Part shown: one piece after another, positions 16,078 through 58,551 of the stretch
Layout of the letters: each line of letters begins with the position of its first letter
How positions within the stretch are numbered: the first letter of the stretch is position 1
Assembly: GCA_964637295.1 (NCBI GenBank)
Contig: CAZWWE010000001.1
Coordinates: 188,312 to 252,311 of the forward strand
DNA: 64,000 nucleotides
Source of the DNA: an uncultured Pseudomonadales bacterium
GTDB lineage: Bacteria > Patescibacteriota > Microgenomatia > UBA1400 > PJMF01
Direction of reading: 5' to 3'
Position numbers and translations under genes: made by a program
Notes under the pieces: model-generated
Database searches by the model: none
The model's input: only the letters and a program-made list of their open reading frames with translations
What the model was told of the DNA's origin: nothing

Positions 16078-16085
16078 ACGCTTTA

Positions 16086-16389: not shown

Positions 16390-19300
<2,911 letters not shown>

Positions 19301-19551: not shown

Positions 19552-19628
19552 TGGTGGACCCTAAGGGGCTCGAACCCTTGGCCTCCACATTGCAAATGTG
19601 GCGCTCTAGCCAACTGAGCTAAGGGCCC
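19552..19628 (-). tRNA. tRNA-Ala (anticodon UGC), with CCA encoded
   Basis: It folds into a cloverleaf with anticodon loop UUUGCAA and the G3:U70 identity pair. It lies just upstream of the 23S gene, as in a typical rRNA operon spacer. Confidence 0.9.
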
Positions 19629-35726: not shown

Positions 35727-36455
35727 TTATTTTCTTTTAGCTAAAATTATCACACTGGATCCAATTGGTAAATTAATGTTTTTCTCTATAAGAAACAGGT
35801 CTATCTTAGCGAGAAATAATAATAAAGAATTCAACACTGGATTGATTTTGCCAACAGTTTTTATTTTTTTGGGCTTAAATGTCTTCAAAAACATTCTTTG
35901 TAATACAAAAAGAGGAAAAGTGGCAAAATAAAGATAGGTAGAACGGATAATTTTAAAGTCATGAATTGCTAATAAATTCTCCAGCTCCTTTTTTCTAAAT
36001 CTTTTCTTCGCCATCATTTGCTCATCGTGCACACTCCAAAAAAAAGGTAAGGCACAGTCAGTGATTAAGAGATACCCATTTTTCTTTAATAAACGACTCG
36101 CTTCTCTTAAAACTGCTTTTTCATCAACTTTCTTATGATATAAAACATCAAAAACAGTAATTAAATCAAAATTTTTTTCATTCACTGGAATTTTGTTGAT
36201 TGAAGATTGGATAACTTGCAGTTTTCTTTGTTTGCAAAAATCAACAGCCCTGCTGTTCTGTTCCACTCCAGTTACCTTGCTCCACTGCTCTAAAAATTGA
36301 GTCATGCCTCCAGTGCCACAGCCGAGATCTAAAATCTTATTTTCTTTACTCAACTTAATTTTTTTTAAAAAAATTGCAATAAACAATCTTTTGGCAACAA
36401 ACCACCAATGAGCGGTTTCGGCTTGAAACATAGATTGATATTGAGATTGTTGCAT
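35727..36455 (-). CDS. Class I SAM-dependent methyltransferase
   Basis: ILDLGCGTGG motif I. Confidence 0.8.
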   Translation of the reverse strand: MQQSQYQSMFQAETAHWWFVAKRLFIAIFLKKIKLSKENKILDLGCGTGGMTQFLEQWSKVTGVEQNSRAVDFCKQRKLQVIQSSINKIPVNEKNFDLITVFDVLYHKKVDEKAVLREASRLLKKNGYLLITDCALPFFWSVHDEQMMAKKRFRKKELENLLAIHDFKIIRSTYLYFATFPLFVLQRMFLKTFKPKKIKTVGKINPVLNSLLLFLAKIDLFLIEKNINLPIGSSVIILAKRK

Positions 36456-36457
36456 TT

Positions 36458-38101
36458 TTAGAAATCGTTCTGTTTTTTTAGCAGATAAATTTTTATTTCT
36501 GAAATATCATCATGGGTATTTAAGCTGCTTGATTTGATTACAAAAAATTGATAATCAATTTTAAGTTTAAATTTATCCCCAAAAGAATACATGCTTTGCA
36601 AAAACCTGCTTATACATTCCTCATCATATTCTCTGCATATTAGAAAATAATATTTTGCATCCAAATAATTTAGTTGACCTCCGTAGTTTAAAGTGTGCTG
36701 ATAATTGTCAACAAGCAAATTTGCCTCATAAAATACTTTATTAACAAAATGGTCAATTCTTTCTGCCATCCACTTTCTATACCACAGATAATTACCGGGA
36801 TCAGTTAAATAATTTTCATTTTGATAAGCGATATCATTAAAAATGTAAACTTTGTCTATAGAAATAAGATTCTGTTTGATTTCATTTACTATCGAGTTGG
36901 CTATTTTTTCATAAACAAATGATGAGTCAACATTTTTTATTGAACAAAAATTTGAACTATCTTTAAGATTGATTATCAAAAAAAATATAAAAAAGGTGAG
37001 CATGATTATGTAAGAAAAAAATTTTAAAATTGAAGGCTTAAGATTAATAACCGTAGATAAATTTATTGCTAATAAAATAAAAAATAAAATACTCAAAACA
37101 TCTATTCTTTGAAGAGAATAAAAACTTTGACTTTTTAAAAAAATAAGGATAATAAAAATCCAAAAAAATACTAGTGGCGTGGTGAATATTTTGACATAAT
37201 CATTTTGAATATTTCTATTAAATGAATTGCTTGCTATTAAAAAAAGAACAAATATTAAAAAAATAAACTCAATAATTTTTGACTCTGTTGTAAAAAATAA
37301 TGACAAAAAAAGTTGAAAGTTTGTATAAAAATGAGTCGCCAAATCTAAAGAAGATGATTTATTTAATTCGACAACAGTAAAAAATGTTTTGAAAGATTGA
37401 AAATGATTGTTAATTTCAAAAATAATTTGAGGCAAATAAATAATTATGAAAAAACAAAATAAAGAAAAAAAAGTATAAAAAATATTGATTAAAAAATTCT
37501 TTTGGTTTCTATTAAAAAAAATAAATGATCCATAAGCAATTGTTGGTAAAAAGATAATTGGAGATGGATAAATTGATAAAGAAAAGAAAAAAAACCAATG
37601 GCTTAAAAACAAATAAAGAATTGCCTTTTTTTTTAAAGCTAAAACTAAAAAGAAAAGAGAAACTGTTAAAAATAAAAATAGTGGATGTGGGTGCCAAATG
37701 GTTCTGCTAACAACGATCGAATACTTCCAAACACTAAACATCACAAAAAATAAAACTGCAATTCTTTTATCATTAGTTATTAAATAAATAAGTAGAGCTA
37801 AAAAAAATATCGTTAACAACCCAAAAATTGCAAAACCTAAAGAAATAATCCCGATTTGACCATTTCCTAGAAAATAAAGCAAAGAGATTAAATAAAGATA
37901 AGTAGGTGGAATAAATAATCCGGGTTGGCTTAGCGCTGGACCAATCAATGGCATTCTTTTTGTTAAATTGATTAATCTTGCAGCTTCTAATTCGTAGCCA
38001 GAGTCTGGTTCTAAATAAGAAAATTTTAAATCAAATAATCTAAAATATGATGCAATACAAACCAAGATCACGCTTAAGAAAAATATAAATGCTTTTTTCA
38101 T
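36458..38101 (-). CDS. GT-C-fold membrane glycosyltransferase (ArnT/PMT-like, GT39/GT83-like)
   Basis: 547 aa, polytopic and extremely F/I/L-rich. The N-terminal region has a DxD-like loop after TM1 and a C-terminal soluble domain. Confidence 0.5.
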   Translation of the reverse strand: MKKAFIFFLSVILVCIASYFRLFDLKFSYLEPDSGYELEAARLINLTKRMPLIGPALSQPGLFIPPTYLYLISLLYFLGNGQIGIISLGFAIFGLLTIFFLALLIYLITNDKRIAVLFFVMFSVWKYSIVVSRTIWHPHPLFLFLTVSLFFLVLALKKKAILYLFLSHWFFFFSLSIYPSPIIFLPTIAYGSFIFFNRNQKNFLINIFYTFFSLFCFFIIIYLPQIIFEINNHFQSFKTFFTVVELNKSSSLDLATHFYTNFQLFLSLFFTTESKIIEFIFLIFVLFLIASNSFNRNIQNDYVKIFTTPLVFFWIFIILIFLKSQSFYSLQRIDVLSILFFILLAINLSTVINLKPSILKFFSYIIMLTFFIFFLIINLKDSSNFCSIKNVDSSFVYEKIANSIVNEIKQNLISIDKVYIFNDIAYQNENYLTDPGNYLWYRKWMAERIDHFVNKVFYEANLLVDNYQHTLNYGGQLNYLDAKYYFLICREYDEECISRFLQSMYSFGDKFKLKIDYQFFVIKSSSLNTHDDISEIKIYLLKKQNDF

Positions 38102-39537
38102 TTATTTTTATTTAATAAATAAAGATTTTGATTGTCATGACTAGATTTGAGAAAAGCGTCATATCCCATTTCCTGAATTTGGAATAAATCTTGATAAACT
38201 ACTTTTCTGTCAACTGAAAACTGATCTAACAAATAAATATTATCACACTCATAATTACTTTCGTTTCTTAAAAAAGAATCTGTGTCAAGTATTTTTACAA
38301 CACTTCCTAGAAAATATTTTGCTTGCAAGTAATTCCAGCTTGGAATAGTAAACAAACAGCTATTGCTTGGAAAACTAAATTCATAAAAAAATGAAATAGG
38401 GTGCTTCGTATAATTAAAAACTGAGTAGATTTTTTTTGTGTCTAACAACATAAAATACAAAGGAAATTGTGAAATTTGAATGACAATAAAAAGGGAAAAA
38501 ACTAAATTAGAAAATTTATTTTTTTCTGTAAAAAAAAGAGTAATTATTATATAAAATGGTATTAAGATTGGAAAAGAAGTTCTGGGATAAAACAATCTAT
38601 TTCCGGTTATCTTTGACAGGATAACAAAAAATATCAAAGATAGTGTCGTGGAAAACAAAAGAGATTTGGTAAGACTTTGGTTTTTACTGCAGAACATTGA
38701 ATGACACATAATAAAAAATAAAACTATAAAAAATGGAATTATGAATGAATTATATGTTTTTTCTGGCGTATAAACCATTAACATACCAAAATAATTAGCA
38801 AATAATTCAAAAAAATTAAAAATATTTACATCTGGAGCCCACTGGTTGCCTATTATTGTTATTGCGACATTTTTAAAAAATGTTGGTAAAAACCAACAAA
38901 TGCCAAAAAAGAATATCAAAAAAAATTGCATAAATATTTTGAGACTAGAAAAATTTTTTTTGTATAATAAATAAGTTAATGGCCAAATTGGAATCAACCA
39001 AACTGAACTATAACTAGTAAAAAACAATAAAATAGCGAACAAAGACAAAAATAAAACATTCGCAAATTTTATTTTTAAATTATTTTTAAGAATAAAGAAC
39101 CAGTAAAATGAATAAATGATTGAAAAAGAAATGGTCAATCCAAACATTCTGTGTTGAAAGCTTAAATGAACGATAGAAATATTGCTAAACAAAAGAAGAA
39201 AAAAAGCAATTAGAAAAGAATAATTTTCTTTTCTGTAAAATAGATATATGCAAATTATCGTAATGAATAACAGCATTACCTGAATTAACCTATAGTAAAA
39301 AATTCCATTGTTAATGCCTAAGAATGCTGTTGGGGCTTCCATAATAAGATACCAAATCATTGGATGAGCTGGATCTGGACATTGGAGCAATTCTTTTAGA
39401 GAAAAACTTTGATTAAAATCAATAGCCAAAATTTCATCTTCCAAAGCATCATATTGTAAATGAGCAAAATACCTTGGCACAAAGAATAGTAATGATAAAA
39501 TCATTAATATTAAAGTTTCTCGCCAATTCTTTTTCAT
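38098..39537 (-). CDS. Polytopic membrane protein, possibly a second GT-C-like transferase
   Basis: 479 aa with at least 10 TM helices. It is coupled to the upstream GT-C gene with a 4-nt overlap. Confidence 0.4.
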   Translation of the reverse strand: MKKNWRETLILMILSLLFFVPRYFAHLQYDALEDEILAIDFNQSFSLKELLQCPDPAHPMIWYLIMEAPTAFLGINNGIFYYRLIQVMLLFITIICIYLFYRKENYSFLIAFFLLLFSNISIVHLSFQHRMFGLTISFSIIYSFYWFFILKNNLKIKFANVLFLSLFAILLFFTSYSSVWLIPIWPLTYLLYKKNFSSLKIFMQFFLIFFFGICWFLPTFFKNVAITIIGNQWAPDVNIFNFFELFANYFGMLMVYTPEKTYNSFIIPFFIVLFFIMCHSMFCSKNQSLTKSLLFSTTLSLIFFVILSKITGNRLFYPRTSFPILIPFYIIITLFFTEKNKFSNLVFSLFIVIQISQFPLYFMLLDTKKIYSVFNYTKHPISFFYEFSFPSNSCLFTIPSWNYLQAKYFLGSVVKILDTDSFLRNESNYECDNIYLLDQFSVDRKVVYQDLFQIQEMGYDAFLKSSHDNQNLYLLNKNK

Positions 39538-40619
39538 TTTTGATCCAACAAATTTTTACTTATCTCATCAATTTTCATTTTCCAAGTATTTGCATTGGCT
39601 ATTTTTTTTTGAAAAAGTTGTTGTTCAATAGTCAAAGGACGATTTAAAAAAGCATTAATTGCTTTTGAAAATTCTGCAGCAGTTTTTGCAATGCTAATAA
39701 ATTCAGGGAACTTTTTCAGTTCTTCGATTTCTGTGCTTATCACAGGCTTACCAGCGTAAAAATATTCAAATGTTTTCATTGGATAGCAGTAACGATTGAA
39801 TAAATATCTATCATTGTAAGGAATAATACAAACATCAAATTGTTCGATGATGTCAAACATTTCCTGGCGTGGCTGTTTATCAATATGAAAAAAATTTTTA
39901 TGAAAAAACAGTTGATTAATTTTTGTTTCTTCCCCTTCGAAAGAAACGTTTGATTCATGATGCTTGGGACCAACAAAAATAAAATTCCACTGTTGATTAT
40001 TAGCTATTAATTCCAAAAGCAGATCGAAATCTAGCCTCTGGCTCATTTGTCCAACAAAACCAATTACTGGCCTAACTTTTGGCAAATTAAGAGCCGATTT
40101 TTTTCTATCTAAAGTAAAACTAGCCAAATCAAATCCTTGTGGTACGACTCTGATTTCAGTTTTAGCATCTTTTTGATAAAGCTTTTTTAATGTCTTAGAA
40201 ATAGAAAAAACATAATCTGCTTTACTAAGTAAATATTTTTTTTGCATTTGTAAAAGCTTATGTTCTACCAAAATTGGCGAGTCATGATAATCAACTACAT
40301 CAAAAATTGCTTGCCACCACGGTAATTTAAATTTGATTGCTGTAACAAGCTGAGGGAAAAACATCCAGAAATAATATTTTCTTCCTTTTTTAAAAAATTT
40401 GATTGTTAAATAAAACTGCAAGTATAAGAAGTAAATTGCTTTATTTAATTGGTCAATTATTTTATATCTACTAAAAGGAATTAAATTAATCGGATTATAG
40501 TAATTAATTACAAAAACATCGTTATTTTTTGCTAAACAATTTTTTGTTTGCCACAAAAAATCACAAACCTGCTCCTCACTAGAAATATTTGGGATAATAA
40601 TGACTGCGTTTTTTAACAT
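39534..40619 (-). CDS. GT-B glycosyltransferase (GT4-like)
   Basis: The C-terminal motif FDVCIIPYND...CYPMKTFEYFYAGKPVISTEIEEL is present. It is a paralogue of the 46730 gene. Confidence 0.6.
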   Translation of the reverse strand: MLKNAVIIIPNISSEEQVCDFLWQTKNCLAKNNDVFVINYYNPINLIPFSRYKIIDQLNKAIYFLYLQFYLTIKFFKKGRKYYFWMFFPQLVTAIKFKLPWWQAIFDVVDYHDSPILVEHKLLQMQKKYLLSKADYVFSISKTLKKLYQKDAKTEIRVVPQGFDLASFTLDRKKSALNLPKVRPVIGFVGQMSQRLDFDLLLELIANNQQWNFIFVGPKHHESNVSFEGEETKINQLFFHKNFFHIDKQPRQEMFDIIEQFDVCIIPYNDRYLFNRYCYPMKTFEYFYAGKPVISTEIEELKKFPEFISIAKTAAEFSKAINAFLNRPLTIEQQLFQKKIANANTWKMKIDEISKNLLDQK

Positions 40620-40645
40620 TTCCTAGTTTATAATAACCCATAATA

Positions 40646-41542
40646 ATGAGGGCTAACATCACCATTGCAATTGTAACAAAAAATAGAATTAAAGAGCTAG
40701 CAAGATGCTTAGATAGCCTTTTGATTCAAAGCCAAAAATCACAGAAAATTATCGTTATTGACAATGATCACGATCATACAGCTAAACAAGTGATTGTTAA
40801 AAATAAGTATCAACAGCTGCCAATTGTTTACTATACTGTTGATGGAAGCGTGCCAAAGTGTAGAAATTTTGCCATTGTAAAGTGTAAAAGTAAATATCTT
40901 GCTTTCACCGATGATGATTGCCTACTAGATCAAAATTGGATTAAAAATGGCATTAATAAAATTAGAAATGGTGACTATGATTTTGTAGTTGGGCAAACCA
41001 AGCTTTATAATCCAGAAAATCTTTTTGCTTTAGCTCAACATACTAGAGATGAATATTGGAAAAAGCAGAATTCTCCCATGTTTGATACAAAAAATGTAAT
41101 TTTAAATTTAGCAACGATTAAGAAACACCAATTGATGTTTGATGAAAAATGTCAAAAATCAGTATACGATAGCGCCGATTTCGACTTTGATTTTGTGGTA
41201 AAAAAATACAAACTCAAAGGTAGTTTTTGTAAAAAAATGATAGTTTACCATAAAGAAACAAAGCAATTTATAAGGTTCATTAGAAGAGCATACTATCGAG
41301 GCTACTTAGGCAAATATTTGGACAGAAAATGGCAACTTGAAGATCAATTAGTTGACTTGAGCACTAGGAACTTTATAATCTGGTTGCTCAAGTTGATTAA
41401 AAACTATTTTTATGATTATAAAAGATATGCTCAAAAAATGAGCCAAGCACCAGTGTGTAATAAAATTTTAGCAAATTTAATCATTAAAATATTTGAGTTC
41501 TGTTACGTCTCAGGTTATGTGGCAAATAAAAAAACTTTTTAA
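40646..41542 (+). CDS. GT2 glycosyltransferase
   Basis: ITIAIVTKNRIKEL, the FTDDDC (DxD) motif. Confidence 0.75.
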   Translation: MRANITIAIVTKNRIKELARCLDSLLIQSQKSQKIIVIDNDHDHTAKQVIVKNKYQQLPIVYYTVDGSVPKCRNFAIVKCKSKYLAFTDDDCLLDQNWIKNGINKIRNGDYDFVVGQTKLYNPENLFALAQHTRDEYWKKQNSPMFDTKNVILNLATIKKHQLMFDEKCQKSVYDSADFDFDFVVKKYKLKGSFCKKMIVYHKETKQFIRFIRRAYYRGYLGKYLDRKWQLEDQLVDLSTRNFIIWLLKLIKNYFYDYKRYAQKMSQAPVCNKILANLIIKIFEFCYVSGYVANKKTF

Positions 41543-43028
41543 ATCTCAGCAAATCGTTGATTCAGGAGCAATTTTAGCACTACTAGTTTTTTTGAGTCTG
41601 TCTTTATTAGTACAAAACGTAAAAATTTTTTATGTTTTAGCTTTTAGCTTTTTTGCTTTCTTAACCTTAACTTTTTCTTTTCCAAAAGCTTTCATCTATT
41701 CAACCATTCCTTTCAGCTTCGTAAGCTTAGCTCAAGTTCACCCAATTCTCGTTGTACCTACAAAAGCTATCGTCACAAACCAATATTGGGAAGGCAGACA
41801 TATTGTTTTTAGTTTTGCGCCATATTTTTTTATCTCTTTAATTGCACTGATATCAATAGCAAGTTGGAAAAAAAAGCTCAAAAGTAGAAATCAATTAACT
41901 AATATCGAAAAGCTTGTCATTATTTCCTTTGCTTGTGGTATTTTGTCTGGAATTTATGGCAGTTTAATAAGTACTCTGAGTGTTTTTAGTGTGTTTTCTC
42001 AGTTTTTAGGAGTTTTGTGGGCTTGGTATTTAAGCAAAAGTTTAAAAGTTGCCAACCAATTACAAAAACAAAGCATTTGGCTCACTTTATTTACAATTAT
42101 TGCCATCATCATTAGCTTTGAATCGCTAATTGTTTTTAAACAAACAATTTCTAAATCACCAGCTGGTTTGGCAATTGAGAAGACCGGTTTTGCTCCTGCG
42201 TTCGGAGCTGGAGCTGATGAAAACATCGGCGAATTTAGGCCATTTGGTTTACAGGCTCACCCAAATGGTTTGGCAAACAAACAGCTAATTCTTGGGTTTT
42301 CTGCTTGGTTGATTTTCTTGCAATTAAAATTTAAAAAATCGTCTAAAATTGCACAACACGCGCAAAACGCTTTGACCTTTATTTTAAGCTTAATGCTGAT
42401 TAACATCATTTTATCTCTGAGCCGCGCAGTTTACTTAGGATTATTTGTTGGCAGTTTGTTCATTTTTTTAAGACAGCGTAAAGAATCGTTTAGATTTATT
42501 CAGAAATTAAAAAAAACATTCAATCATTGGCCAACTAGATATAAATTTTTATTTCTATTATTTGCTTACATTTTAATCTTCAAGCTTGGAACAAGAATGA
42601 TCAATAGTATTTATTCTTTTTCTGAATTTGGCGGTGTTAACACTAGATTAGAACAATACAAAGAAGCAATAGAGGTATTCAAAAAAAGTCCAATTTTTGG
42701 CATCGGTGATGAAATGTTTATTCCTACTTCCTATCAATTATTTCCCAGTGGAGTGATGACTTATTTTCCAGAAAACGTTCACAATGGTTTTTTACTTTTT
42801 ACAATTGAACGAGGTCTGTTGGGTTTAATTGTTTATCTGATTTTTATAATTTTAACTGTTATCAAAATAAGTCAAAGTAAAATTAAGAAAATTAATAAAA
42901 GTATAGTATACTCAGGCTTGATTGCAATTTTTTCAGTAATGATCTTTCATCCAGAAAAAAATTTTTTTAATATTTTTCTGCTCTTAGCGCTAGTAATAAC
43001 CGACCTTAACTATGAAAAAAATCTATAA
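41493..43028 (+). CDS. Wzy_C-family O-antigen polymerase/ligase-like membrane protein
   Basis: 511 aa with about 11 TM helices. The motif HNGFLLFTIERGLLG is present. Confidence 0.6.
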   Translation: MSSVTSQVMWQIKKLFKSQQIVDSGAILALLVFLSLSLLVQNVKIFYVLAFSFFAFLTLTFSFPKAFIYSTIPFSFVSLAQVHPILVVPTKAIVTNQYWEGRHIVFSFAPYFFISLIALISIASWKKKLKSRNQLTNIEKLVIISFACGILSGIYGSLISTLSVFSVFSQFLGVLWAWYLSKSLKVANQLQKQSIWLTLFTIIAIIISFESLIVFKQTISKSPAGLAIEKTGFAPAFGAGADENIGEFRPFGLQAHPNGLANKQLILGFSAWLIFLQLKFKKSSKIAQHAQNALTFILSLMLINIILSLSRAVYLGLFVGSLFIFLRQRKESFRFIQKLKKTFNHWPTRYKFLFLLFAYILIFKLGTRMINSIYSFSEFGGVNTRLEQYKEAIEVFKKSPIFGIGDEMFIPTSYQLFPSGVMTYFPENVHNGFLLFTIERGLLGLIVYLIFIILTVIKISQSKIKKINKSIVYSGLIAIFSVMIFHPEKNFFNIFLLLALVITDLNYEKNL

Positions 43029-43857
43029 ATTTCAAACCATTGATATTTTAAGCTTGTTCGCGATTTTCTTTTTTACTGCCATTATTTACTTTTTCTTCAG
43101 CAGAAAAACAGAATATTTAAATATCACACTAAGACTTTTTAATCAAGATTCTCCAGAATATAGTCTTGACAGCAACCAGACCAAAGCTTGGTATGTTGAG
43201 CAAGTAAAAAAGGGCAAGGCTCAAAAAAACCTATTTGGCGAAACTCTAATAGAGATTGCGGATGTTTATAGTTACCCAAATGGTCATGTCTATAATGACG
43301 TCTATGTCACCCTCAAAATCAAAGCTGTCCAAAATAAAACAACTAAGCAGTATGTTTATGAAGGCAGTCCACTTTTAATTCATGATGTGAAATCTTTTAA
43401 AGTTCAAGATCTGCTAATTAATGGAGAAATTATTGATCTTAACAATCAACCAAGAGAAACTAAAAAATTCAAAGTTGTCTTTGAACTAAATGAAATGAGA
43501 ATAAATTATGATTTTGTTAATAATAGTCAAGCTATGGTGAAGGGTGTAAATAATTACATCGCTGATTTGATGAAGCAAGATCTGGCTATTAAGGATAGCA
43601 GCGGTAATGAATTGGTAAAGATAAACAAGGTCGAAAAAAAACCAGGTCTTAGACTCTTAGCAACGGAAAAGGGTCTAATCAAACTAACAGATCCAGATAG
43701 AACTCAAGTCATTTTATACACTGATTTAATTGCTGAAAAAATTAATAATCACTACTATTATCGCAAAGAAGAACCTTTAATGGTAGATGAAGTTATTTAT
43801 TTAACTTTTGAACAGATCACTGTCTCTGGAACAATCATTTCTATAGAATCATATTAA
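43012..43857 (+). CDS. Hypothetical membrane-anchored protein
   Basis: 281 aa with one N-terminal TM. Confidence 0.4.
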   Translation: MKKIYKFQTIDILSLFAIFFFTAIIYFFFSRKTEYLNITLRLFNQDSPEYSLDSNQTKAWYVEQVKKGKAQKNLFGETLIEIADVYSYPNGHVYNDVYVTLKIKAVQNKTTKQYVYEGSPLLIHDVKSFKVQDLLINGEIIDLNNQPRETKKFKVVFELNEMRINYDFVNNSQAMVKGVNNYIADLMKQDLAIKDSSGNELVKINKVEKKPGLRLLATEKGLIKLTDPDRTQVILYTDLIAEKINNHYYYRKEEPLMVDEVIYLTFEQITVSGTIISIESY

Positions 43858-43870
43858 TTTTGATTAATTT

Positions 43871-44752
43871 ATGAATAAGCTGCCGAAGATTTCCATCGTC
43901 ACTCCATCCTACAATCAGGGCAAATTCCTCAAACAAACCATTGACTCCATTCTTTCACAAGATTATGCCAATTTTGAATACGTGGTCATCGATGGCGGTT
44001 CAAGCGATAACAGTCTAGAGATCATTAAGAAATATCAAAAAAAACTCAAGTATTTTGAGAGCAAAAAAGATCGCGGTCAGTCTCATGCTATTAACAAAGG
44101 TTTCGCCAAAACAGATGGCGAAATCATGGCCTGGCTCAACAGCGATGACATCTATCGTCCAGGAACTTTGAAATTGGTAGCAAGCATTTTTGCACAATTT
44201 CCTGAAATAAATTGGTTGACTTGTCTGCCTTCCACCATCAATGAAGATGGCTACCAAATTTATTTAGCCAAACCCCCACTTTACCTTAGATATTTTTTGC
44301 AAAAAGGCTGGTATGTGAGAAAACTATTTGGTTTTGTAATGCAGGAAGGCACTTTTTGGCGACGCTCTTTATGGGAAAAGACTGGTGGAAAAGTCGATGA
44401 ACAATCACACTTCGCCATGGACGTAAAACTTTGGCAAAGCTTTGCTAAATTTTCTCCTTTGCATTACGTAGAGGCTTCACTAGCTTCCTACCGATTAAAT
44501 CCAAACAGAAAAAGCAATGACGACCATAAAAAATGCTATCAAGAGATGAGCTTACGAATGCCTAGCTTATTAAGTGTTTTGATTAAAGTAATTTGGCGAC
44601 AAATAGAAAAAATTGCCCACGCAAGTAAATTATTTCCAAGTATTTATTTTGATCAAAAAAGCCTAGTTTGGAAATTTCACAAAAATCTATTTGAGGTAAA
44701 AACCTTCCAATTGCTTAGCGATACTAAGCCAAGAAAGACGCTTGGCAAGTAA
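43871..44752 (+). CDS. GT2 glycosyltransferase
   Basis: ISIVTPSYNQGKFL, the VVIDGGSSD motif. Confidence 0.8.
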   Translation: MNKLPKISIVTPSYNQGKFLKQTIDSILSQDYANFEYVVIDGGSSDNSLEIIKKYQKKLKYFESKKDRGQSHAINKGFAKTDGEIMAWLNSDDIYRPGTLKLVASIFAQFPEINWLTCLPSTINEDGYQIYLAKPPLYLRYFLQKGWYVRKLFGFVMQEGTFWRRSLWEKTGGKVDEQSHFAMDVKLWQSFAKFSPLHYVEASLASYRLNPNRKSNDDHKKCYQEMSLRMPSLLSVLIKVIWRQIEKIAHASKLFPSIYFDQKSLVWKFHKNLFEVKTFQLLSDTKPRKTLGK

Positions 44753-45856
44753 TCTGGCATTTCGACTAAGTTGCTTTATTTTTTGTGGCTGATCAAGCAG
44801 CTCGGCAATGGCTTTAGCAAAAAGTTTTGGATTTTCTGAGGCCAAAATGCCAACTTTTTCTCTCTCAAGAATTTTTTTGACTTCCCCGGTTGGATTAGCG
44901 ATCACTGGACGTCCAGCCGCCAAATAATCACCTAGTTTATTGGGGAATTTACCCAAATTAATTTCTTTATTAGCAAAAGGCAACAACATCAGATCTCCTG
45001 CAGCTAAGTAATAACCCAACAAATCTCTAGACACAACTCCAGGACGCAATACTTTTTTCTGCAAAGCTTGATTTCTAAAAGTCAATTCTTCTTCAAAAAT
45101 TTTGATAGCTGGCCCAAGCAACATTAGCTTGATGTCTTTGCGAAGTTTATTAAGTTCAACAAAAGTCTGTGCCAAAAGTTTTTCGTCATAAGTGCCCACG
45201 TATAAATAAACTAGAATTTTATCTGCAAGAGATAAATTGATTTTCCTGCGAGCAATCTCCTGAGAAATTGGCTCGATTTGACTGACATCCGCTCCGACTC
45301 CTAGAAAAAAAATGTTTTGTTTTTTTCCTCTAATTAGCCGTGCTTTCCTTACTAAATCATCGCTGATGGGCGTAACAGCAAAAGGCAATTTGATCATTAG
45401 CTTTTCCATGTAATGATCAACGTTTGTGGTGATGAATCTCATCGGCCCGTACCTGAGGTCTGCAATGCCTCCTTTGCCCCATAAATCAGCCCAATCTAAA
45501 AACCATTTAGTTTTTCTGCAAAAAAAAGTTTTAATTAAAGCTGGTAAAGTGGCGGCTGGACGATGGTTAAAACTGTGAATCACATCACACTTTGAAAACA
45601 AAACCACCAAACTACGGAATAACAAATCAAAAGGATCATAACCACCCTTACGAATGCGTTTTGGCAAAAAACCAATCGACTCAATTACTAAAACCCCATT
45701 CTCGATAGATTTTTTTGGTAAAAGTGCAAAGTTTTTAGCACTGGTCCACAAAGTTACTTGGTGCCCCAATTTTACCAAGCCTCCAGCCAAGGATAAGGCT
45801 CTTAGATAGCTGCCACCAATTTCTTTGGCTTCGTAGGTGGAAAAAATAATTTTCAT
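44687..45856 (-). CDS. GT4 (GT-B) glycosyltransferase
   Basis: 389 aa with a Glycos_transf_1-like C-terminal half. Its 3' end overlaps the convergent GT2 gene by 66 bp. Confidence 0.65.
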   Translation of the reverse strand: MKIIFSTYEAKEIGGSYLRALSLAGGLVKLGHQVTLWTSAKNFALLPKKSIENGVLVIESIGFLPKRIRKGGYDPFDLLFRSLVVLFSKCDVIHSFNHRPAATLPALIKTFFCRKTKWFLDWADLWGKGGIADLRYGPMRFITTNVDHYMEKLMIKLPFAVTPISDDLVRKARLIRGKKQNIFFLGVGADVSQIEPISQEIARRKINLSLADKILVYLYVGTYDEKLLAQTFVELNKLRKDIKLMLLGPAIKIFEEELTFRNQALQKKVLRPGVVSRDLLGYYLAAGDLMLLPFANKEINLGKFPNKLGDYLAAGRPVIANPTGEVKKILEREKVGILASENPKLFAKAIAELLDQPQKIKQLSRNARLLAKRLSWLSIAKQLEGFYLK

Positions 45857-46602
45857 GAGTTCTTTTTTTTAATTCTTTCAAGCAAAAGTGAAAATAAATA
45901 TTTTGGAATTGTGATCAAATACCTACGCCACAGTCTTTTTGGCTCAGTGACTAAACGAAAAAACCACTCCAAACCATTTTTTTGCATCCATTTGGGAGCT
46001 TGTTTTTGTTGTTTAGTTAAAAAGTCAAAGGCTGCCCCCACACAATAGACATCAACTTTTTTATAATTAGCCTTAAACCAATTGGCAAGTTTGATCTGCT
46101 TAGGGGAACCTATGCCAATCCAGACTATGCCTGGTCCAGAAAACTCAATTTTTTCTAAATAATTAAATTCTTGCTTCTGATTTAAACCTTTCGGTAAAAA
46201 AGCAAACTTAGCTGGCAGCGTTGGATATTGATTGGCAATAAAAGTGGACATTTTCAGCATCGTAACTTTGTCTGGAGCTAAAAATAAATTCTTTTGAGAA
46301 AATTTGCTTTTAGCATTTTTGTCTAAAATTGCCAAAATTAACTCTGGACCATAAACGCGATCGATTGTTCTGTGAGTTTTAGAACGCAAAAAATAAGTCA
46401 AAAACATGCTGTCACAAGTACACAAATCGACTTTATGATAGTACAACCACGATTGTTTTTCTTTGCTTAAGGCCAACTCATGCAAAGTCGTGGGAAAAAT
46501 AATGCGAGAAGAACTTTTCTTCATCGAATAAGCAAAAATCTGCTCAACAACTTTTTCAAATTTGCCAATTAAAAATGGCATTCTGTCTAAATAAATTAAC
46601 AT
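45853..46602 (-). CDS. WecG/TagA/CpsF-family glycosyltransferase (GT26)
   Basis: IVWIGIGSPKQIKLANWF is present, which is the GSPKQE-type motif. Confidence 0.7.
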   Translation of the reverse strand: MLIYLDRMPFLIGKFEKVVEQIFAYSMKKSSSRIIFPTTLHELALSKEKQSWLYYHKVDLCTCDSMFLTYFLRSKTHRTIDRVYGPELILAILDKNAKSKFSQKNLFLAPDKVTMLKMSTFIANQYPTLPAKFAFLPKGLNQKQEFNYLEKIEFSGPGIVWIGIGSPKQIKLANWFKANYKKVDVYCVGAAFDFLTKQQKQAPKWMQKNGLEWFFRLVTEPKRLWRRYLITIPKYLFSLLLERIKKKNS

Positions 46603-46729
46603 AATCTAAAACATCTGGTATTATGTCACCACTGAGCAAATAGAGAAATAATAAAAAGTGAAAGCAAGACTTTCAAAAAAATTTTGATGCAGTGCATAAA
46701 ATCTTTAATGAACATAAATTTTTTACTAA

Positions 46730-47737
46730 ATGAAAAAAATAATTATATTACCAACTGCTTGGCAAGAACAAACCACCGATTTTCAAAAGCAAACTAAAAA
46801 ATATTTGTCTGATAAAAATATTGTTTTTGGAATTAATTTAAACAATAAACACGCAAATATAAAAATATTTTTTTTATTTTTAATCTTAAAAACAATCAAA
46901 ATTATTAATAAAAAAGAAATAATATTGTGGATAAATCAATTTCAAACATATGCGTTTTTTTATAGAAAAAAACACATTTTTAACAAAATTATTTATGATT
47001 GTGTTGATTATCCAAAAAACGAATTAGCAGGCAAAAATCTTACAGAAAAAATGTTAATAAAAAATTGTCACTACATGTTTGTTAATTCAAAAACATTAAA
47101 AAATGAATATTTGAAACTTAGAAAGAAAATAATTATAGTTCCGCAAGGTTTTAGAGATGATGTATTTAAATCATCAATAACAAAAAAAGAAAAACAAGAA
47201 AGAAAGAAAATAGGTTATATCGGGGGAATAAATTTCAGATTAAACTATGACTTGTTAGACAAAATAATTAAAAAAAAACAAGAGTACGATTTTGTATTTT
47301 GGGGGCCAATTACTGACTATGAACCGAACCAACTAAATAAAATAGAAAAATTATTAAAAAATAAAAATGTTATTTATGGATATTCTGAAGACAAGAATGA
47401 AATTCCAAACATAATTAATAGCTTTGATTTATGTATCATACCTTATGACGTTTCTAAGAAATTTAATCAATTCTGTTATCCAATGAAGGTGATGGAATAC
47501 TTTTATATGCAAAAAAAAATAGTTTCTGCTCCAATAGAAGAATTAAAAAAATACAAAAAATATATTACCATAGCAAACAATTATGAAGAATGGATTTCTA
47601 GTATAGACAAATCACTTATAGATACAATTGACAAAAAAGAAAAAATAGAGATGAGAAAAATAGCTATAAATAATTCTTGGGAGAAAAAAATAAAGAAAAT
47701 GGAAAAATTGATTGATAATGAGTTAAATTTTAAATAA
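46730..47737 (+). CDS. GT4-like glycosyltransferase, markedly more AT-rich than its neighbours
   Basis: The C-terminal motif FDLCIIPYDVSKKFNQFCYPMKVMEYFYMQKKIVSAPIEEL is a paralogue of the one in the 39534 gene. The coding sequence is dominated by A/T runs. Confidence 0.55.
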   Translation: MKKIIILPTAWQEQTTDFQKQTKKYLSDKNIVFGINLNNKHANIKIFFLFLILKTIKIINKKEIILWINQFQTYAFFYRKKHIFNKIIYDCVDYPKNELAGKNLTEKMLIKNCHYMFVNSKTLKNEYLKLRKKIIIVPQGFRDDVFKSSITKKEKQERKKIGYIGGINFRLNYDLLDKIIKKKQEYDFVFWGPITDYEPNQLNKIEKLLKNKNVIYGYSEDKNEIPNIINSFDLCIIPYDVSKKFNQFCYPMKVMEYFYMQKKIVSAPIEELKKYKKYITIANNYEEWISSIDKSLIDTIDKKEKIEMRKIAINNSWEKKIKKMEKLIDNELNFK

Positions 47738-47859
47738 AAATATATTATTAATTGCAGATTGTCTTGAAAGAGAGGCGCCTAGCTAGAATAAACAATTTTT
47801 TTATTGAACAAATGGATTACAAGTCTAAAATAATAATAAAAAAATAAAATCTAAAATAA

Positions 47860-48573
47860 TTAAATGCATAAAAAAAGAAAATTTTTTTGACAATTTTTAA
47901 TTAAGTAATCTTTCCATTGACTAACCACTATGACAGTGGTTTCGTTCTTTAGCGTTTTCTGAATGATTTTTTCTGACTTTTTCCTAAACTCTTCATCCCC
48001 CATATTCATCACCTCATCCAACAATAAAATGTCTGGTTCTGCATGTATCGCCACACTGAATCCCAACCTCAGTTTCATACCACTTGAATAAGTATAAAGT
48101 GGCGCAGTGATAAAATCACCAATACCAGCAAAGTCTACAATTTGGGCGAATTTAGCCTCAATTTCTTCTTTAGACATACCAATTACCAAGCCATTAAGAA
48201 AAATATTTTCCTGACCAGTTAAATCTGGATGAAAACCAGCTTCCAAGTCAATTAATGAAATAATTCTTCCTTTGGTCTTCACTTTTCCTTCAGTTGGAGC
48301 AGAGATACCGGCAATAATTTTTAACAAAGTGGTCTTACCTGCACCATTAGGCCCGTAAAATCCCACTTTTTCACCCCTTCGAATTTGTAAGTTTACATTT
48401 TTTAACGCCCAATATTCTTCTCTCGGTTGGAAACGTAATTTTCTACCAACATCCTCAGCGAAAGTTGGCTTTTCGTGATGAACGATGTATTTTTTACCCA
48501 CTCCTTGCAAATCAATCACCACCTCACCAGGATTTTTGCTTTTGTGTAGAATTTCTTCTTTTAAAATTGTCAT
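47860..48573 (-). CDS. wzt: ABC transporter ATP-binding protein (Wzt/TagH-type polysaccharide exporter)
   Basis: Walker A is GFYGPNGAGKTTLLK. The signature SSGMKLRLGF and the Walker B motif LLLDEV are present. Confidence 0.85.
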   Translation of the reverse strand: MTILKEEILHKSKNPGEVVIDLQGVGKKYIVHHEKPTFAEDVGRKLRFQPREEYWALKNVNLQIRRGEKVGFYGPNGAGKTTLLKIIAGISAPTEGKVKTKGRIISLIDLEAGFHPDLTGQENIFLNGLVIGMSKEEIEAKFAQIVDFAGIGDFITAPLYTYSSGMKLRLGFSVAIHAEPDILLLDEVMNMGDEEFRKKSEKIIQKTLKNETTVIVVSQWKDYLIKNCQKNFLFLCI

Positions 48574-48598
48574 ATTTTCATTTAATTAACTCATCTAA

Positions 48599-48759
48599 AC
48601 CTCGTACTCAAATATGAAATCATTGAAGTCGCTGACTGAGCAATAAAGAATCTTACTTTGTTTTTTAACAGCGACTTCACTGAGCGAGACAAAGGCTGGT
48701 TTGTCATTAAGCAAAAATTTTAGTCGAGCGTGTTTCATATTTGAGTACGAGGTTTATAA
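48599..48759. repeat. Intergenic palindromic element between wzm and wzt: a perfect 24-bp terminal inverted repeat flanking 113 bp
   Basis: TAAACCTCGTACTCAAATATGAAA (48599-48622) pairs perfectly with TTTCATATTTGAGTACGAGGTTTA (48736-48759). A nested 11-bp inverted repeat is TGAAGTCGCTG / CAGCGACTTCA. The interior motifs GCTGACTG, AGCAATAA and ACAGCGACT are shared with the element at 57277. Confidence 0.7.
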
Positions 48760-53403: not shown

Positions 53404-53477
53404 GCGTGTGTAGCTCAATTGGTTAGAGCTCCAAGCTTATACCTTGGCGGTTCTAGGTTCGAGTCCTAGCACACGCA
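53404..53477 (+). tRNA. tRNA-Ile with a genomic UAU anticodon
   Basis: It folds into a cloverleaf with acceptor GCGTGTG / CACACGC, D arm GCTC..GAGC, anticodon stem CCAAG / CTTGG, loop CTTATAC (giving anticodon TAT) and T arm CTAGG-TTCGAGT-CCTAG. Confidence 0.8.
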
Positions 53478-53511
53478 CTTAAATAACCCATTTTTCTGCT
53501 AAAATGGAAGC

Positions 53512-54968: not shown

Positions 54969-55061
54969 TGAGACTCGAACAGCAATTTCAAGACATTTGA
55001 TGACGCGAAAAGATGTATCTAATCGAGTCATCTCTGGCTTGAAATTAGTGTTCGAGTCGTA
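54969..55061. repeat. Imperfect nested palindrome overlapping the 3' end of the GHMP kinase gene; likely a terminator or processing hairpin
   Basis: GACTCGAACAGCAATTTCAAG pairs with CTTGAAATTAGTGTTCGAGTC (2 mismatches). An inner inverted repeat TGATGAC / GTCATC is also present. Confidence 0.45.
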
Positions 55062-56899: not shown

Positions 56900-56916
56900 A
56901 ATTCCTTTTTCAATAT

Positions 56917-56969
56917 GAGAGAAAACTTAGTCCTTTAATCTAAGCTGTCTTATGTTAAAGGACTAAGTT
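56917..56969. repeat. Short hairpin made of the same arm sequences as the 57277 element, with the interior collapsed to an 8-nt loop
   Basis: GAGAGAAAACTTAGTCCTTTAATCTAAG pairs with CTGTCTTATGTTAAAGGACTAAGTTCTCTC. The arms are almost identical to the TIRs of the 57277-57447 element. Confidence 0.65.
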
Positions 56970-57280
56970 CTCTCTGCCTTTAGCCCGTAACAAATAATTT
57001 CTTGCGACGCTTCTTTTTTGATTTTTCTCAGCACTATTTCGACTTCATCACCAATTTTGAATTTCTGATGCGCCACTCCCATTAAAGAAATTTTTTCTTT
57101 GCCTAAATCAACTAATAAATAAGCATAAGGCAATAACTCAGTTTGATCAGAAGCAGAAACTTCCATCATTGTGACAGATAAAACTTTGCCTTTTTGACCT
57201 AAATATTTGGACCAGTTTTTATTGGAGCGCCAGTATTCTGTAATTTGCATAAAATTTTTCCATTTAACCAAATAAATCAA
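56963..57280 (-). CDS. DUF35-family OB-fold protein (thiolase/HMG-CoA synthase scaffold-like); the N-terminal zinc ribbon is absent
   Basis: 105-aa ORF with a TTG start at 57280; the first ATG is at 57250. The OB-fold signature LPYAYLLVDLGKEKISLMGV...IGDEVEIVL is present. It lies between the thiolase gene and the kinase genes. Confidence 0.55.
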   Translation of the reverse strand: MIYLVKWKNFMQITEYWRSNKNWSKYLGQKGKVLSVTMMEVSASDQTELLPYAYLLVDLGKEKISLMGVAHQKFKIGDEVEIVLRKIKKEASQEIICYGLKAERT

Positions 57281-57447
57281 AACTTAGTCCTTTAATATAA
57301 GACCATTTGCAGGAGCTGACTGCTAAACATCAATAAGCAATAATGTTTATAGACAGCGACTGCAATGAGTGTAGAAGAAGATTGTTAACTTAAATAAGCT
57401 AATAATTTTCATCTAACGTGTCTTATGTTAAAGGACTAAGTTTTGAT
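57277..57447. repeat. Intergenic palindromic element between the thiolase and DUF35 genes: a 28-bp terminal inverted repeat with 1 mismatch flanking 116 bp
   Basis: ATCAAAACTTAGTCCTTTAATATAAGAC (57277-57304) pairs with GTCTTATGTTAAAGGACTAAGTTTTGAT (57420-57447). The interior shares GCTGACTG, AAGCAATAA and ACAGCGACTGCAATGAG with the 48599 element. Confidence 0.7.
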
Positions 57448-58551
57448 TCCCAAGATATTAACTATTGCCGTCGCGCCACTGCCGCCAACATTATGGGCAA
57501 GCGCCTTGTCAAATTGACCAGCTTCAATTGATGATGCCAAAAAAGCCACCTGTTTTACACCAGTGGCTCCCACTGGATGCCCACAAGCCTTGAGCCCACC
57601 AGAAGGGTTGACTACTACTAAACCATCATAAGTGGCTTGACCTTCAGCAATAGCCTTAGCAGCCTGACCTTTGCTAAAAAAGCCAAGATCTTCAGTGGCT
57701 AGAATTTCAGCAATACTAAAACAATCATGTACTTCAATGGCTTGAATATCTTTTTGACTCAAACCAGCCTGATTAAAGGCTTGCTTAGCTGCTTTTTGTG
57801 TGGCTACTAATTTTCCTAAGTCTTGGCGGTCTTGCAGTGCCAATGTATCTTGGGCATGACCAAAACCTAAAATTTGCGTTTTACGATTGGATTTTTTACT
57901 ACTTAGAATCACCGCTGCTACTCCATCACTAATTGGCGAACAATCTAAAAGTCTAAGCGGCGAAGCAACTATCGCAGAATTAGCAACATCTTCGAGAGTA
58001 AATTTTTTATGAAATTGAGCCTGGGGATTACTAAAAGCATGCAGGTGATTTTTAACCACCACGCTAGATAATTGCTCTCGAGTCGTTCCATAGTGATGCA
58101 TGTGATAATCGGCTAAAACTGCATAAAGCGCTGGAAAAGTCGAACCGTATTCCTTTTCTCTACTAGCCGCTGTCGCCAAAATAGCGCTAGCTTGACTACC
58201 AGAAACATCAGTCATTTTTTCTACTCCCAAAACCAAAACTGTCTTGTATAAACCGCTGAGTAAAGCTTGTTGCGCTGCCACTACTGCCAAGCCACCAGAG
58301 GCACAAGCCCCTTCGACGCGCATCGCCGGCGGAAAATGAGCAAATTGTTCACTGACTAAAGCCCCCAAATGTCTTTGTTCATTAAAACTGCCACTGGCCT
58401 TGTTAGCGACAAAAATTGCTTCAATTTCTGAAGGATTGATTTGTGCATCAGCCAAAACACCGCTCACACCTTCTTTAATCAAATCGGTTAAACTTTTTTC
58501 CCAAAGTTCCCCAAATTTACCGATGTAGTTACCAATTATTTTAATGTTCAT
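57436..58551 (-). CDS. Archaeal-type acetoacetyl-CoA thiolase (thiolase-like / SCP-x family)
   Basis: 371 aa with the catalytic Cys in EGACASGG and the C-terminal motif GHPVGATGV. Confidence 0.75.
   Translation of the reverse strand: MNIKIIGNYIGKFGELWEKSLTDLIKEGVSGVLADAQINPSEIEAIFVANKASGSFNEQRHLGALVSEQFAHFPPAMRVEGACASGGLAVVAAQQALLSGLYKTVLVLGVEKMTDVSGSQASAILATAASREKEYGSTFPALYAVLADYHMHHYGTTREQLSSVVVKNHLHAFSNPQAQFHKKFTLEDVANSAIVASPLRLLDCSPISDGVAAVILSSKKSNRKTQILGFGHAQDTLALQDRQDLGKLVATQKAAKQAFNQAGLSQKDIQAIEVHDCFSIAEILATEDLGFFSKGQAAKAIAEGQATYDGLVVVNPSGGLKACGHPVGATGVKQVAFLASSIEAGQFDKALAHNVGGSGATAIVNILGIKT

Follow-up and report, generated by a model that had tools for sequence, protein, structure and literature searches.

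We analysed a 64,000-nt stretch of contig CAZWWE010000001.1 (hereafter the window) from an uncultured Patescibacteria bacterium, in which a small DUF35-like gene of a mevalonate operon is bracketed by two hairpin elements, a full-length copy (E57) between thiolase and DUF35 and a gutted copy (H56) between DUF35 and the first GHMP kinase. We read E57 as an element resembling a miniature inverted-repeat transposable element (MITE) that acts as a transcribed RNA module uncoupling neighbouring cistrons, and give this reading as a whole a probability of roughly 0.55. The parts differ in strength. Judged from sequence comparisons, it is very probable that E57 belongs to a dispersed structured family, that the elements were inserted at these junctions, that H56 arose from E57, and that DUF35 was not mobilised. 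The proposed role in uncoupling and processing at the RNA level draws on analogy, and we offer it tentatively, at somewhat less than even odds. The family is MITE-like and previously undescribed in Rfam or in the literature searched. It comprises at least 30 distinct copies of 157-178 nt in about 10 Microgenomates-type Patescibacteria genomes.

E57 and H56 on either side of DUF35

Genes of the operon lie on the minus strand in the order HMG-CoA reductase (HMGR), HMG-CoA synthase (HMGS), thiolase, a DUF35-like OB-fold protein of 95 aa, two GHMP kinases and diphosphomevalonate decarboxylase (MDD). The DUF35-like protein matches Pfam PF01796 at E=7e-5, under the curated cut-off, and is without the N-terminal zinc-ribbon part. 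Its best PDB match (E=7e-4) is the 'Pfam DUF35' chain of 6ESQ/6ET9, a component of the archaeal thiolase/HMGS complex. Thus, with a DUF35 OB-fold encoded beside thiolase and HMGS (HMGR-HMGS-thiolase-DUF35), the operon contains the archaeal-type thiolase/HMGS/DUF35 module. Homologues of the thiolase are annotated as Pacebacteria, Woesebacteria or Patescibacteria. The features at the two junctions are:

57436-58551, minus strand: thiolase gene, 3' end remodelled by E57; stop TAG at 57436-57438
57275-57448, minus strand: E57, full-length family copy of 174 nt at the thiolase-DUF35 junction (inverted repeat and covariance model)
57420-57448, minus strand: 5' arm of E57, RNA sense AATCAAAACTTAGTCCTTTAACATAAGAC, encoding the last thiolase residues and the TAG stop
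57304-57419, minus strand: interior of E57, with the branch CACGUU..GAAAA-P2-AACAAUCUU..ACAC and then P3 (CUCAUUGCAGUCGCUG...CAGCUCCUGCAAAUGG) (alignment A5 and structure counts)
57275-57303, minus strand: 3' arm of E57 (repeat scan)
57251-57274, minus strand: 24-nt spacer TATTTGGTTAAATGGAAAAATTTT between E57 and the DUF35 ATG, carrying GGA
56963-57250, minus strand: DUF35-like OB-fold gene, 95 aa, ATG start at 57250-57248; position conserved in all relatives
56918-56975, minus strand: H56, internally deleted E57 copy (closing stem only) at the junction of DUF35 and the first GHMP kinase (repeat scan, fold and model R1)
56900-56917, minus strand: new 18-nt spacer CATATTGAAAAAGGAATT, with AAGGA ahead of the kinase ATG (56899-56897); in relatives the two genes overlap by 8 nt at this point

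A sequence-only reading of this DNA had described a full element at 57277-57447 with 28-bp terminal inverted repeats, one mismatch and a 116-bp interior. The element is real, but its coordinates were off by 1-2 nt: the arms, which the repeat scan places 116 nt apart, are 29 nt long with one mismatch (97% complementary). The same reading was right that the element reaches the thiolase stop, which lies inside the arm. It also had the terminal repeat overlap a DUF35 start at TTG 57280, a codon that is only the first in-frame start of a mechanically listed open reading frame (ORF). The orthologues all have MQITEYW from the ATG onward, and the product predicted by gene callers is 95 aa long. Counted from this ATG, which lies 24 nt past the end of E57 without overlapping it, the gene measures 288 bp and not the 318 bp proposed.

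On the gene strand, E57 RNA folds at -71 kcal/mol (z = -11.0), and with the covariance model R1 E57 reaches 155 bits on the minus strand, versus 29 on the plus strand. The thiolase of the window ends in ..ILGIKT, with IKT and the stop encoded by the arm, versus ..ILGKKL, GRK or GI at relatives whose site is empty; where the end is ..ILGKKL, the DUF35 start overlaps the thiolase gene (ATGA). The outermost 4 bp of E57 (AATC/GATT) are site-specific and match the left flank, and a decayed direct repeat of the target (TGGGAA / TGGAAA) flanks the element. Toward its distal end (TGGAAAAATTTTATG) the spacer is similar to the native junction TGGGAAAAAATTATG of the empty-site relatives.

At the far end of DUF35, the earlier reading had placed a hairpin with the same arm at 56917-56969, with an 8-nt loop. 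The hairpin and its arm stand, with the limits corrected to 56918-56975; the two 27-nt arms (56918-56944 and 56949-56975) are 89% complementary and 4 nt apart. Its RNA folds into a 21-bp perfect stem with a small apical stem (-34 kcal/mol, z = -8.7), and model R1 matches the closing stem alone (32 bits, E=5e-6). The arm shared with E57 forms, as had been claimed, a direct repeat on both sides of DUF35: 23 nt, 96% identical, at 56922-56944 and 57279-57301. The 15-mer AACTTAGTCCTTTAA occurs four times in the 64 kb versus 0.31 expected, and 0 of 100 shuffles reached four. The DUF35 stop (TAG, 56963-56965) lies inside the H56 arm, and the stops of both thiolase and DUF35 are the TAG of the arm motif AACTTAG. 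DUF35 ends in ..ERT in the window, from this motif, versus ..HV in empty-site relatives.

The two elements share AACTTAGTCCTTTAACATAAGACA (24 nt) on their 5' side, after which H56 continues with GCTTAGAT and E57 with CGTTAGAT. H56 keeps the first bases of the E57 interior (CA..TTAGAT) and then joins directly to TAAAGGACTAAGTTTT of the E57 3' arm, of which 16 nt are shared. The deletion junction, TTAGAT joined to TAAAGG, falls between two TTAnAT repeats of E57 (TTAGAT and TTATAT). The outermost pairs of H56 (AGAG/CTCT) differ from those of E57 and match the local left flank. H56 is limited to the window and a 97% relative (L002); E57 is also found in an 85% relative (L007/L008). By its junctions and distribution, H56 is to be read as an E57 derivative, formed by short-repeat deletion between TTAGAT and TTATAT, and as the younger of the two. 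The suggestion that the short hairpin is a deletion derivative is thus borne out by the remnants of arm and interior that it keeps and by its narrower distribution.

The converse proposal, that the hairpins are terminators or attenuators splitting the operon and that a solo terminator like H56 is ancestral to the longer elements, is very unlikely. Long stable stems in intergenic positions would suit it, as would the T-rich tracts that follow some copies (GATTTATTTGG after E57; GTACTTTATTT after the copy, in genome L010, of a short 'I8-type' element described below). However, a consensus scan of 54.8-57.7 kb for promoters and terminators flagged no element and gave promoter counts at shuffle level. 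E57, H56 and I8 all went unflagged on the gene strand as intrinsic terminators, which have a short G+C-rich stem with a U run directly after it; the stems here (20-31 bp) are AT-rich, and many tails are A-rich. Termination here would also leave downstream genes promoterless, and H56 is younger than E57, carries remnants of its interior and is without a terminator signature.

A dispersed family with a conserved fold

We searched one genome per GTDB species with a strict core pattern, which identified 22 loci in about 10 Patescibacteria assemblies, including Pacebacteria UBA6188, UBA6180 and a Microgenomatus; one complete 853-kb genome has four matches. An nhmmer profile of 24 copies gave 37 matches in the DNA collected. 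The window holds three full copies, E57 and the following two:

48596-48756, minus strand: E48, between the genes of an ABC-2 permease and an ABC ATPase; perfect 24-bp arms; R1 135 bits; the arm begins with the 3 nt of the permease stop TAA
29724-29883, plus strand: E29, in the 5' leader of phosphoglycerate kinase (ATG 29913); found by nhmmer; R1 104 bits

E48 is 71% identical to E57 on the same strand, and differences in one arm are compensated on the opposite arm. An inverted-repeat scan of the window shows elements with 113-117-nt interiors but arms different from those of E57, among them E48. Truncated family copies were found in L023, as H56, and as a remnant in L037. No family copy matched Rfam 15 at gathering scores across the whole window, and our literature search on such repeats or RNA motifs in Patescibacteria or Microgenomates found no description of the family. 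Scans of viral contigs with the family and short-element patterns gave no hits.

The alignment of family copies that the sequence-only reading had suggested (A5; 24 copies, structure from RNAalifold with completion by hand) shows a conserved structured family that extends beyond this locus. The arms are variable but have a conserved inner part (..CTTTAA..AGTC), and two variable hairpins are present along with the invariant blocks CACG.T..AC.AAAA, CAATCTT, TC.CTCAGTGAAGTCGCTGT and CAGCTCCTTCAATGG. The arms form P1, a closing stem of 20-31 bp in which the inner ~14 bp are conserved in the family and the outer bases are copy-specific. Inside are a two-pair clamp (G35-C84 and Y36-R83), P2, and P3, which stacks on P1 via the continuous 3' strand; together with the side branch CACGYU..ACUAAAA-P2-AACAAUCUU..UCRC these helices make up a three-way junction. 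The invariant unpaired or junction nucleotides are CACG, AAAA, CAAUCUU, GCUGU, CAGC and CAA-UGG.

Paired cells amount to 86.7% in the alignment, versus 72.3% in shuffles and 32-47% in slid controls, and double-change cells number 173 versus 57 in shuffles; none of 500 shuffles reached the observed pairing and double-change values. Pair 36:83 is always one of two kinds, U-A in 13 copies and C-G in 11. In 20 of 24 copies pair 85:153 is U·G, and G·U outnumbers A·C by 25 to 1 in P3a. The structure therefore forms on the sense strand, as RNA or single-stranded DNA.

Such a fold might belong to a host-selected cis-acting RNA, with the three-way junction serving as a protein- or ligand-binding leader or as a new self-cleaving ribozyme, and processing or controlling the downstream message. 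The invariant unpaired nucleotides, the covariation in P3 and at pair 36:83, the typical leader-like layout ahead of an ATG, the resemblance of one copy (L019, below) with its canonical terminator to a free-standing small RNA, and the lack of a matching Rfam family all favour this idea. We nevertheless think it quite unlikely. The downstream genes (recR, murA, lysS, PBP1A, dut, pgk, pth, ABC ATPase, DUF35) are unrelated and share no common pathway, which argues against a ligand-specific riboswitch, and the 25-bp closing stem, too stable for switching, argues against an aptamer of that kind. The ribosome-binding site is left accessible, antisense and truncated copies have been retained, and Rfam in E-value mode on E57 and L024 returned just long-hairpin microRNA precursor-like and terminator-like matches far below threshold, with no known ribozyme class.

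Several individual copies deserve mention. One copy in L019 (7515-7671, minus strand) is closely preceded by a -10-like box, TGGTAATAT, and followed, after ~50 nt that hold no gene, by a canonical terminator, AAAAACCCGCTC..GAGCGGGTTTTTTT; this arrangement resembles a stand-alone small-RNA unit. The lysS leaders of two related genomes (L024:4544-4706 and L025:2675-2844) contain copies of two subfamilies with unrelated outer arms, reflecting either repeated insertion at one site or replacement by conversion. The records CAZFIY, CAZEEV and CAZIBP (L014, L018, L023, L025, L030, L031, L033), titled 'uncultured Pseudomonadales', contain Patescibacteria-type genes along with the family, and these taxon labels are probably wrong. 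The sole short-read contig with the exact thiolase of the window, a 1.3-kb Logan contig from SRR9860463 (L001, 1230-1333), stops in the middle of E57.

A further palindrome, E19 (19636-19798), was considered as a family member and rejected, as alignment, nhmmer and the covariance model detected no similarity. Its 163 nt form a near-perfect palindrome over the whole length, with perfect outer arms of 23 bp (z = -11.8), and lie 7 nt upstream of the tRNA-Ala and 23S genes. It could be of another repeat family or an rRNA-operon processing stem. A hairpin in the 23S-5S spacer (16315-16356) weakly matches the closing stem of model R1 (E = 0.03).

Filled and empty sites in related operons

Orthologous operons were gathered via relatives of the thiolase and a kinase scan of metagenomes. 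Their junctions are listed below, with identity to the window thiolase unless marked:

Window and L002 (100% and 97%): thiolase-DUF35, E57 in sense; DUF35-kinase, H56; PMK-MDD, short element in the window (L002 ends before this junction)
L003-L006 (90%): thiolase-DUF35, overlap (ATGA); DUF35-kinase, 8-nt overlap; PMK-MDD, empty
L009 (91%): thiolase-DUF35, overlap; DUF35-kinase, 8-nt overlap; PMK-MDD, short element
L007 and L008 (85%): thiolase-DUF35, E57 in sense; DUF35-kinase, overlap; PMK-MDD, empty
L010, L039 and L040 (84%): thiolase-DUF35, 2-nt gap; DUF35-kinase, overlap; PMK-MDD, short element
L011 (82%): thiolase-DUF35, 30-nt spacer; DUF35-kinase, overlap; PMK-MDD, empty
L036 (82%, kinase): thiolase-DUF35, antisense copy; DUF35-kinase, overlap; PMK-MDD, empty
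L012 and L013 (78%): thiolase-DUF35, antisense copy; DUF35-kinase, overlap; PMK-MDD, empty
L037 and L042 (74-77%, kinase): thiolase-DUF35, abutting; DUF35-kinase, overlap; PMK-MDD, remnant (L037)
L038 (64%, kinase): thiolase-DUF35, antisense copy; DUF35-kinase, overlap; PMK-MDD, not covered

Among the 11 further lineages, thiolase and DUF35 overlap by 1-4 nt or abut in five, are separated by a 30-nt spacer in one, and flank a copy in five, in both orientations; the antisense copies (L012/13, L036, L038) have arms unlike those of E57. Outside the window and L002, the overlap of DUF35 with the kinase gene measures 32 nt in L010 and its close relatives (ATGTCTAG) and 8 nt in all others. These overlapping or abutting genes bear out the claim that the elements sit where translational coupling would be broken.

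The repeated arms had also raised the possibility that DUF35 was mobilised or duplicated with its flanks, as a present or past mobile cassette like those of integrons or composite elements. Beyond the 23-nt arm in direct orientation on both sides, the evidence leaves this idea next to no chance. All 11 further lineages have DUF35 in this same place, preceded by thiolase and followed by the first GHMP kinase; six of these have neither element, and several have an upstream copy only, in either orientation. DUF35 is thus a fixed operon resident, which refutes cassette mobilisation; these loci also answer the proposed check for DUF35 genes without flanking arms. The gene diverges in step with its neighbours (77% vs 79% nucleotide identity), and the loci read contain no second DUF35 copy and no integrase. 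The outer ends of the family are variable, unlike the R boxes of attC.

Presence/absence polymorphism was seen at the thiolase-DUF35, DUF35-kinase and PMK-MDD junctions and in the pth leader, where L010 has a family copy directly past a -10 box and the site is empty in L003, L007 and L012. At the E48 site the permease and ATPase genes of relatives overlap or lie 2-8 nt apart, with orthology less sure as these syntenic genes are ~45% identical. The permease end ..NFDDW[FL] is preserved upstream of E48, and the native permease end GATGATTGGTTxTAAAT recurs, as a direct but decayed copy, in the E48 spacer GATGAGTTAATTAAATG. Decayed direct repeats also flank E48 as GATGATTGGTTATAA / GATGAGTTAATTAA and the I8-type element as CACTAA / CACTAA, with varying lengths. 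Filled sites thus consist of the native upstream end, the hairpin element, and a degenerate direct target copy that carries the ribosome-binding region. E57 and H56 each swap the last 2-3 upstream codons for the arm-encoded ..ACT-TAG, and each add a new spacer with a GGA(A) ribosome-binding motif ahead of the downstream ATG.

Constraint, context and possible selfish spread

The comparison of the window with L007, and of the short PMK-MDD element between two relatives, gave the following identities:

E57, window vs L007: 91.4% (174 nt, no indel)
E57 spacer, window vs L007: 87.5%
Thiolase, DUF35 and kinase, window vs L007, all positions: 71-79%
Thiolase, DUF35 and kinase, window vs L007, third codon positions: 57-61%
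Short-element core, L009 vs L010: 95%
PMK third codon positions, L009 vs L010: 55%

E57 thus evolves 4-5 times slower than adjacent synonymous sites, and its immediate flanks are not unusually similar. Copies are also kept at orthologous loci across genera (L018/L030b, L016/L021, L016b/L034a, L015/L023). The conservation of E57 argues for purifying selection or continual homogenisation.

Typical copies are preceded by a stop codon, a terminator or a -10-like hexamer and followed, after 13-30 nt with GGA or AGGA, by the ATG of a co-oriented gene. About 18 copies have this layout with a co-oriented downstream gene and about 7 do not. The -10-like hexamer lies 0-10 nt upstream of many copies, which is suggestive but not significant in AT-rich DNA; E57 is without a -35 box.

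The family could instead consist of purely selfish MITEs, passengers with no effect on the host or at a slight cost to it, which survive only in the few nucleotides that separate a stop codon or promoter from the following ribosome-binding site. Conservation would then reflect recent spread from active master copies or gene conversion among copies rather than a function for the host. We rate this as unlikely, yet deserving serious attention. It would explain the mosaic presence and absence among close relatives, the truncated copies (L023, H56, the L037 remnant), the use of both orientations at one junction, and the functionally unrelated downstream genes. It is harder to reconcile with the retention of orthologous copies across genera, the slow, indel-free evolution of E57 between flanks that are not unusually similar, and the orientation bias toward the downstream gene (about 18 to 7).

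The copies share with MITEs that they are small (<500 bp), non-coding, multi-copy and dispersed. Conserved outer ends matching a parent insertion sequence were not found in the loci read, the outer 8-15 nt being copy-specific and the inner ~14 nt conserved. No fixed TA or other short target duplication was found; decayed direct repeats of the target are visible, in varying lengths.

Several observations weigh against our preferred reading of a MITE-like element acting as an RNA module. The interiors of paralogues in different genomes are ~92-93% alike (E57 vs L025 or L015; A5, by eye), which fits recent spread and the selfish alternative. The loci read contain no partner transposase and no autonomous or parent element; conservation is lowest at the outer arm ends, in contrast to terminal repeats bound by a transposase; and the flanking direct repeats are degenerate and variable in length (about 6-16 nt). 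Mismatches in P1 show no bias of G·U over A·C (12 vs 17). A host function that depends strictly on the sense strand cannot apply to all copies, as antisense ones occupy the same junction and in about 7 of 25 cases the copy and a downstream gene do not share an orientation.

The short PMK-MDD element and its arms

A smaller element occupies a third junction of the operon:

54972-55058, minus strand: short hairpin element ('I8 type') between PMK and MDD, 87 nt; its 5' arm is the PMK coding end (..RLEH), its 3' arm the reverse complement; core CAGAGATGAC...GTCATCAAATG

Homologues lie at the same junction in L009 and L010/L039/L040, with a remnant in L037; the site is empty in L004, L036, L007 and others. 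The PMK C-terminus ..GVRLE. is also found in genomes without the element. In each genome the 3' arm mirrors the local coding end:

Window: 5' arm CGACTCGAACACTAA; 3' arm matches at 19/21
L009: 5' arm CGTTTAGAATCATAA; 3' arm matches at 17/17
L010: 5' arm CGTTTGGAAAACTAA; 3' arm matches over 22 nt with one indel

This mirroring of each genome's PMK end means that one arm has been repeatedly re-templated on the other, or that selection for pairing is very strong. Template switching at quasipalindromes during replication rewrites one arm of an imperfect inverted repeat with the other as template (PMC7202029). Such a process would hold the arms at full complementarity and lengthen them into the flank; the known examples are mutational hotspots at single sites in E. 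coli and yeast, and not the long-term maintenance of a repeat family.

Model R1 gave no significant match to the short element (12.6 bits, E=0.46), and its apparent kinship to the main family lies in architecture and a shared ..CAAATG junction before the 3' arm only. We considered and rejected outer arms copied wholly from the target for the main family, in which arms are inherited between related copies (E57, L018, L030b, L010). The flank-derived parts are the outermost few base pairs of the main family and the arms of the short element.

Proposed mechanism and comparison with known elements

In the history that we rate as very probable, E57 inserted into the thiolase-DUF35 junction, which is a 1-4-nt overlap or an abutment in most element-free relatives. 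A copy whose interior was then removed by slippage between TTAGAT and TTATAT inserted 357 bp further downstream, between DUF35 and the kinase, giving H56. Each insertion left a decayed direct target copy with the GGA(A) motif ahead of the downstream ATG. The element would be transcribed within the operon mRNA, where the sense strand would fold independently and physically uncouple translation of the adjacent cistrons. The ~25-bp perfect duplex is a likely site for processing or stability control by a double-strand-specific (RNase III-type) enzyme, by analogy with Correia elements. Duplexes of the size of RNase III substrates (~20 bp or more, near-perfect) are present in both copies: P1 of E57 has 29 bp with one mismatch and H56 has 21 perfect bp. 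The complementarity of the arms and their extension into the upstream flank may come from quasipalindrome template switching or from selection for pairing. Hairpin-aided slippage between the direct repeats would restore the empty site exactly and could plausibly have produced the mosaic distribution; the precise excision known for Tn5 and Tn10 would be analogous.

The closest functional analogue of the predicted P1 duplex is found in the RNase III hairpins between cistrons of phage T7 early mRNA and in rRNA operons, where duplexes 20 bp or longer set the RNAs on both sides apart and stabilise them. Those are fixed single-copy sites, whereas the E57 family consists of dispersed repeats. ERIC/IRU and YPAL of enterobacteria and Yersinia and the Rickettsia palindromic elements (RPEs) are imperfect palindromes of ~100-150 nt that are transcribed with genes and have orientation-dependent effects on mRNA stability; their sequences and hosts differ from those of the E57 family. 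RPEs can give host genes new coding sequence by inserting in frame inside them. E57 and H56 similarly supply new C-terminal and stop codons, but at gene junctions.

Correia elements of Neisseria (CREE/NEMIS) are similar in being intergenic, ~100-155 bp long, with ~26-bp inverted ends and a conserved core (PMC2649163, PMC10969869), and also in occurring as full and internally deleted forms with strain-to-strain insertion polymorphism. They are co-transcribed with their neighbours and their hairpin is cut or bound by RNase III; cleavage is at the terminal repeats, and expression of the neighbours is changed (PMC10969869, PMC2649163). Their sequence and phylum are unrelated, and they have conserved ends, a TA duplication, an IHF site and promoter halves. 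The E57 family, unlike these, has copy-specific outer arms, a covarying three-way junction with a strand-specific wobble pair, and long degenerate flanking repeats.

In QMITE2 of Coxiella burnetii the direct repeats measure 7-9 bp, the terminal repeats 23-29 bp and the core 113-145 bp (PMC10969869), dimensions nearly equal to those of the E57 family. Like the family, it and other prokaryotic MITEs are AT-rich and intergenic with a transcript that forms a long stem-loop (PMC10969869). For the E57 family no related insertion sequence or transposase was identified, the termini are unconserved, and orthologous copies are conserved well above neutral sites. As read from the alignments, the family differs from classical MITEs in its variable outer termini, strand-specific covarying three-way junction, conservation at orthologous loci and flank-tracking arms.

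A bolder extension is that these are a new class of structured mobile element, with a closing stem that is a self-extending palindrome, re-templated on the host flank so that it follows the coding end of the upstream gene, and a three-way-junction RNA, for example an 'insulator' (self-cleaving or protein-recruiting), domesticated by the streamlined Patescibacteria genomes to separate cistrons and to mark mRNA 5' ends. We consider it decidedly unlikely.

Other features of the window

Bacterial 23S and 5S rRNA genes are present, together with tRNA-Ala, at 16086-19628 (minus strand). No 16S rRNA gene occurs anywhere in the 64 kb, so the rRNA genes are unlinked. A 22-nt inverted repeat flanks the 5S gene (16074-16095 / 16194-16215). 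Adjoining the E19 palindrome is a gene for a 782-aa protein with TrwB/HerA-type ATPase domains, similar to type IV coupling proteins (20014-22362, minus strand). Also encoded is a tRNA-Ile with anticodon TAT (53404-53478, plus strand); most bacteria decode AUA with a modified CAT anticodon.

The region 36000-48000 has a G+C content of 26-32% versus 36-43% elsewhere, and its flanks hold genes for a Wzy-like protein and an ABC-2 exporter. This region may be a surface-polysaccharide island. Positions 1-4900 (40-43% G+C) have almost no listed ORF of at least 80 aa, and are probably part of a very long ORF crossing the window edge (such ORFs were unlisted), or else non-coding DNA.

Implications

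The unusual arrangement of DUF35 can be explained without gene mobility. The comparison shows that insertions rebuilt two successive, translationally coupled junctions of the mevalonate operon, at both of which the stop codon, the C-terminal residues and the ribosome-binding spacer are new. This provides a natural experiment on coupling in the thiolase/HMGS/DUF35 module, and an effect on the stoichiometry of the thiolase/HMGS/DUF35 complex, as proposed from the sequence, is plausible. The three lineage-specific cases of a non-coding arm mirroring coding sequence make possible a direct test of hairpin-templated concerted evolution. Palindromes of this kind break short-read assemblies and may fragment the bins of these genomes. 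More broadly, the analysis defines a conserved, covarying family of ~165 nt in an uncultured phylum with almost no described non-coding elements.

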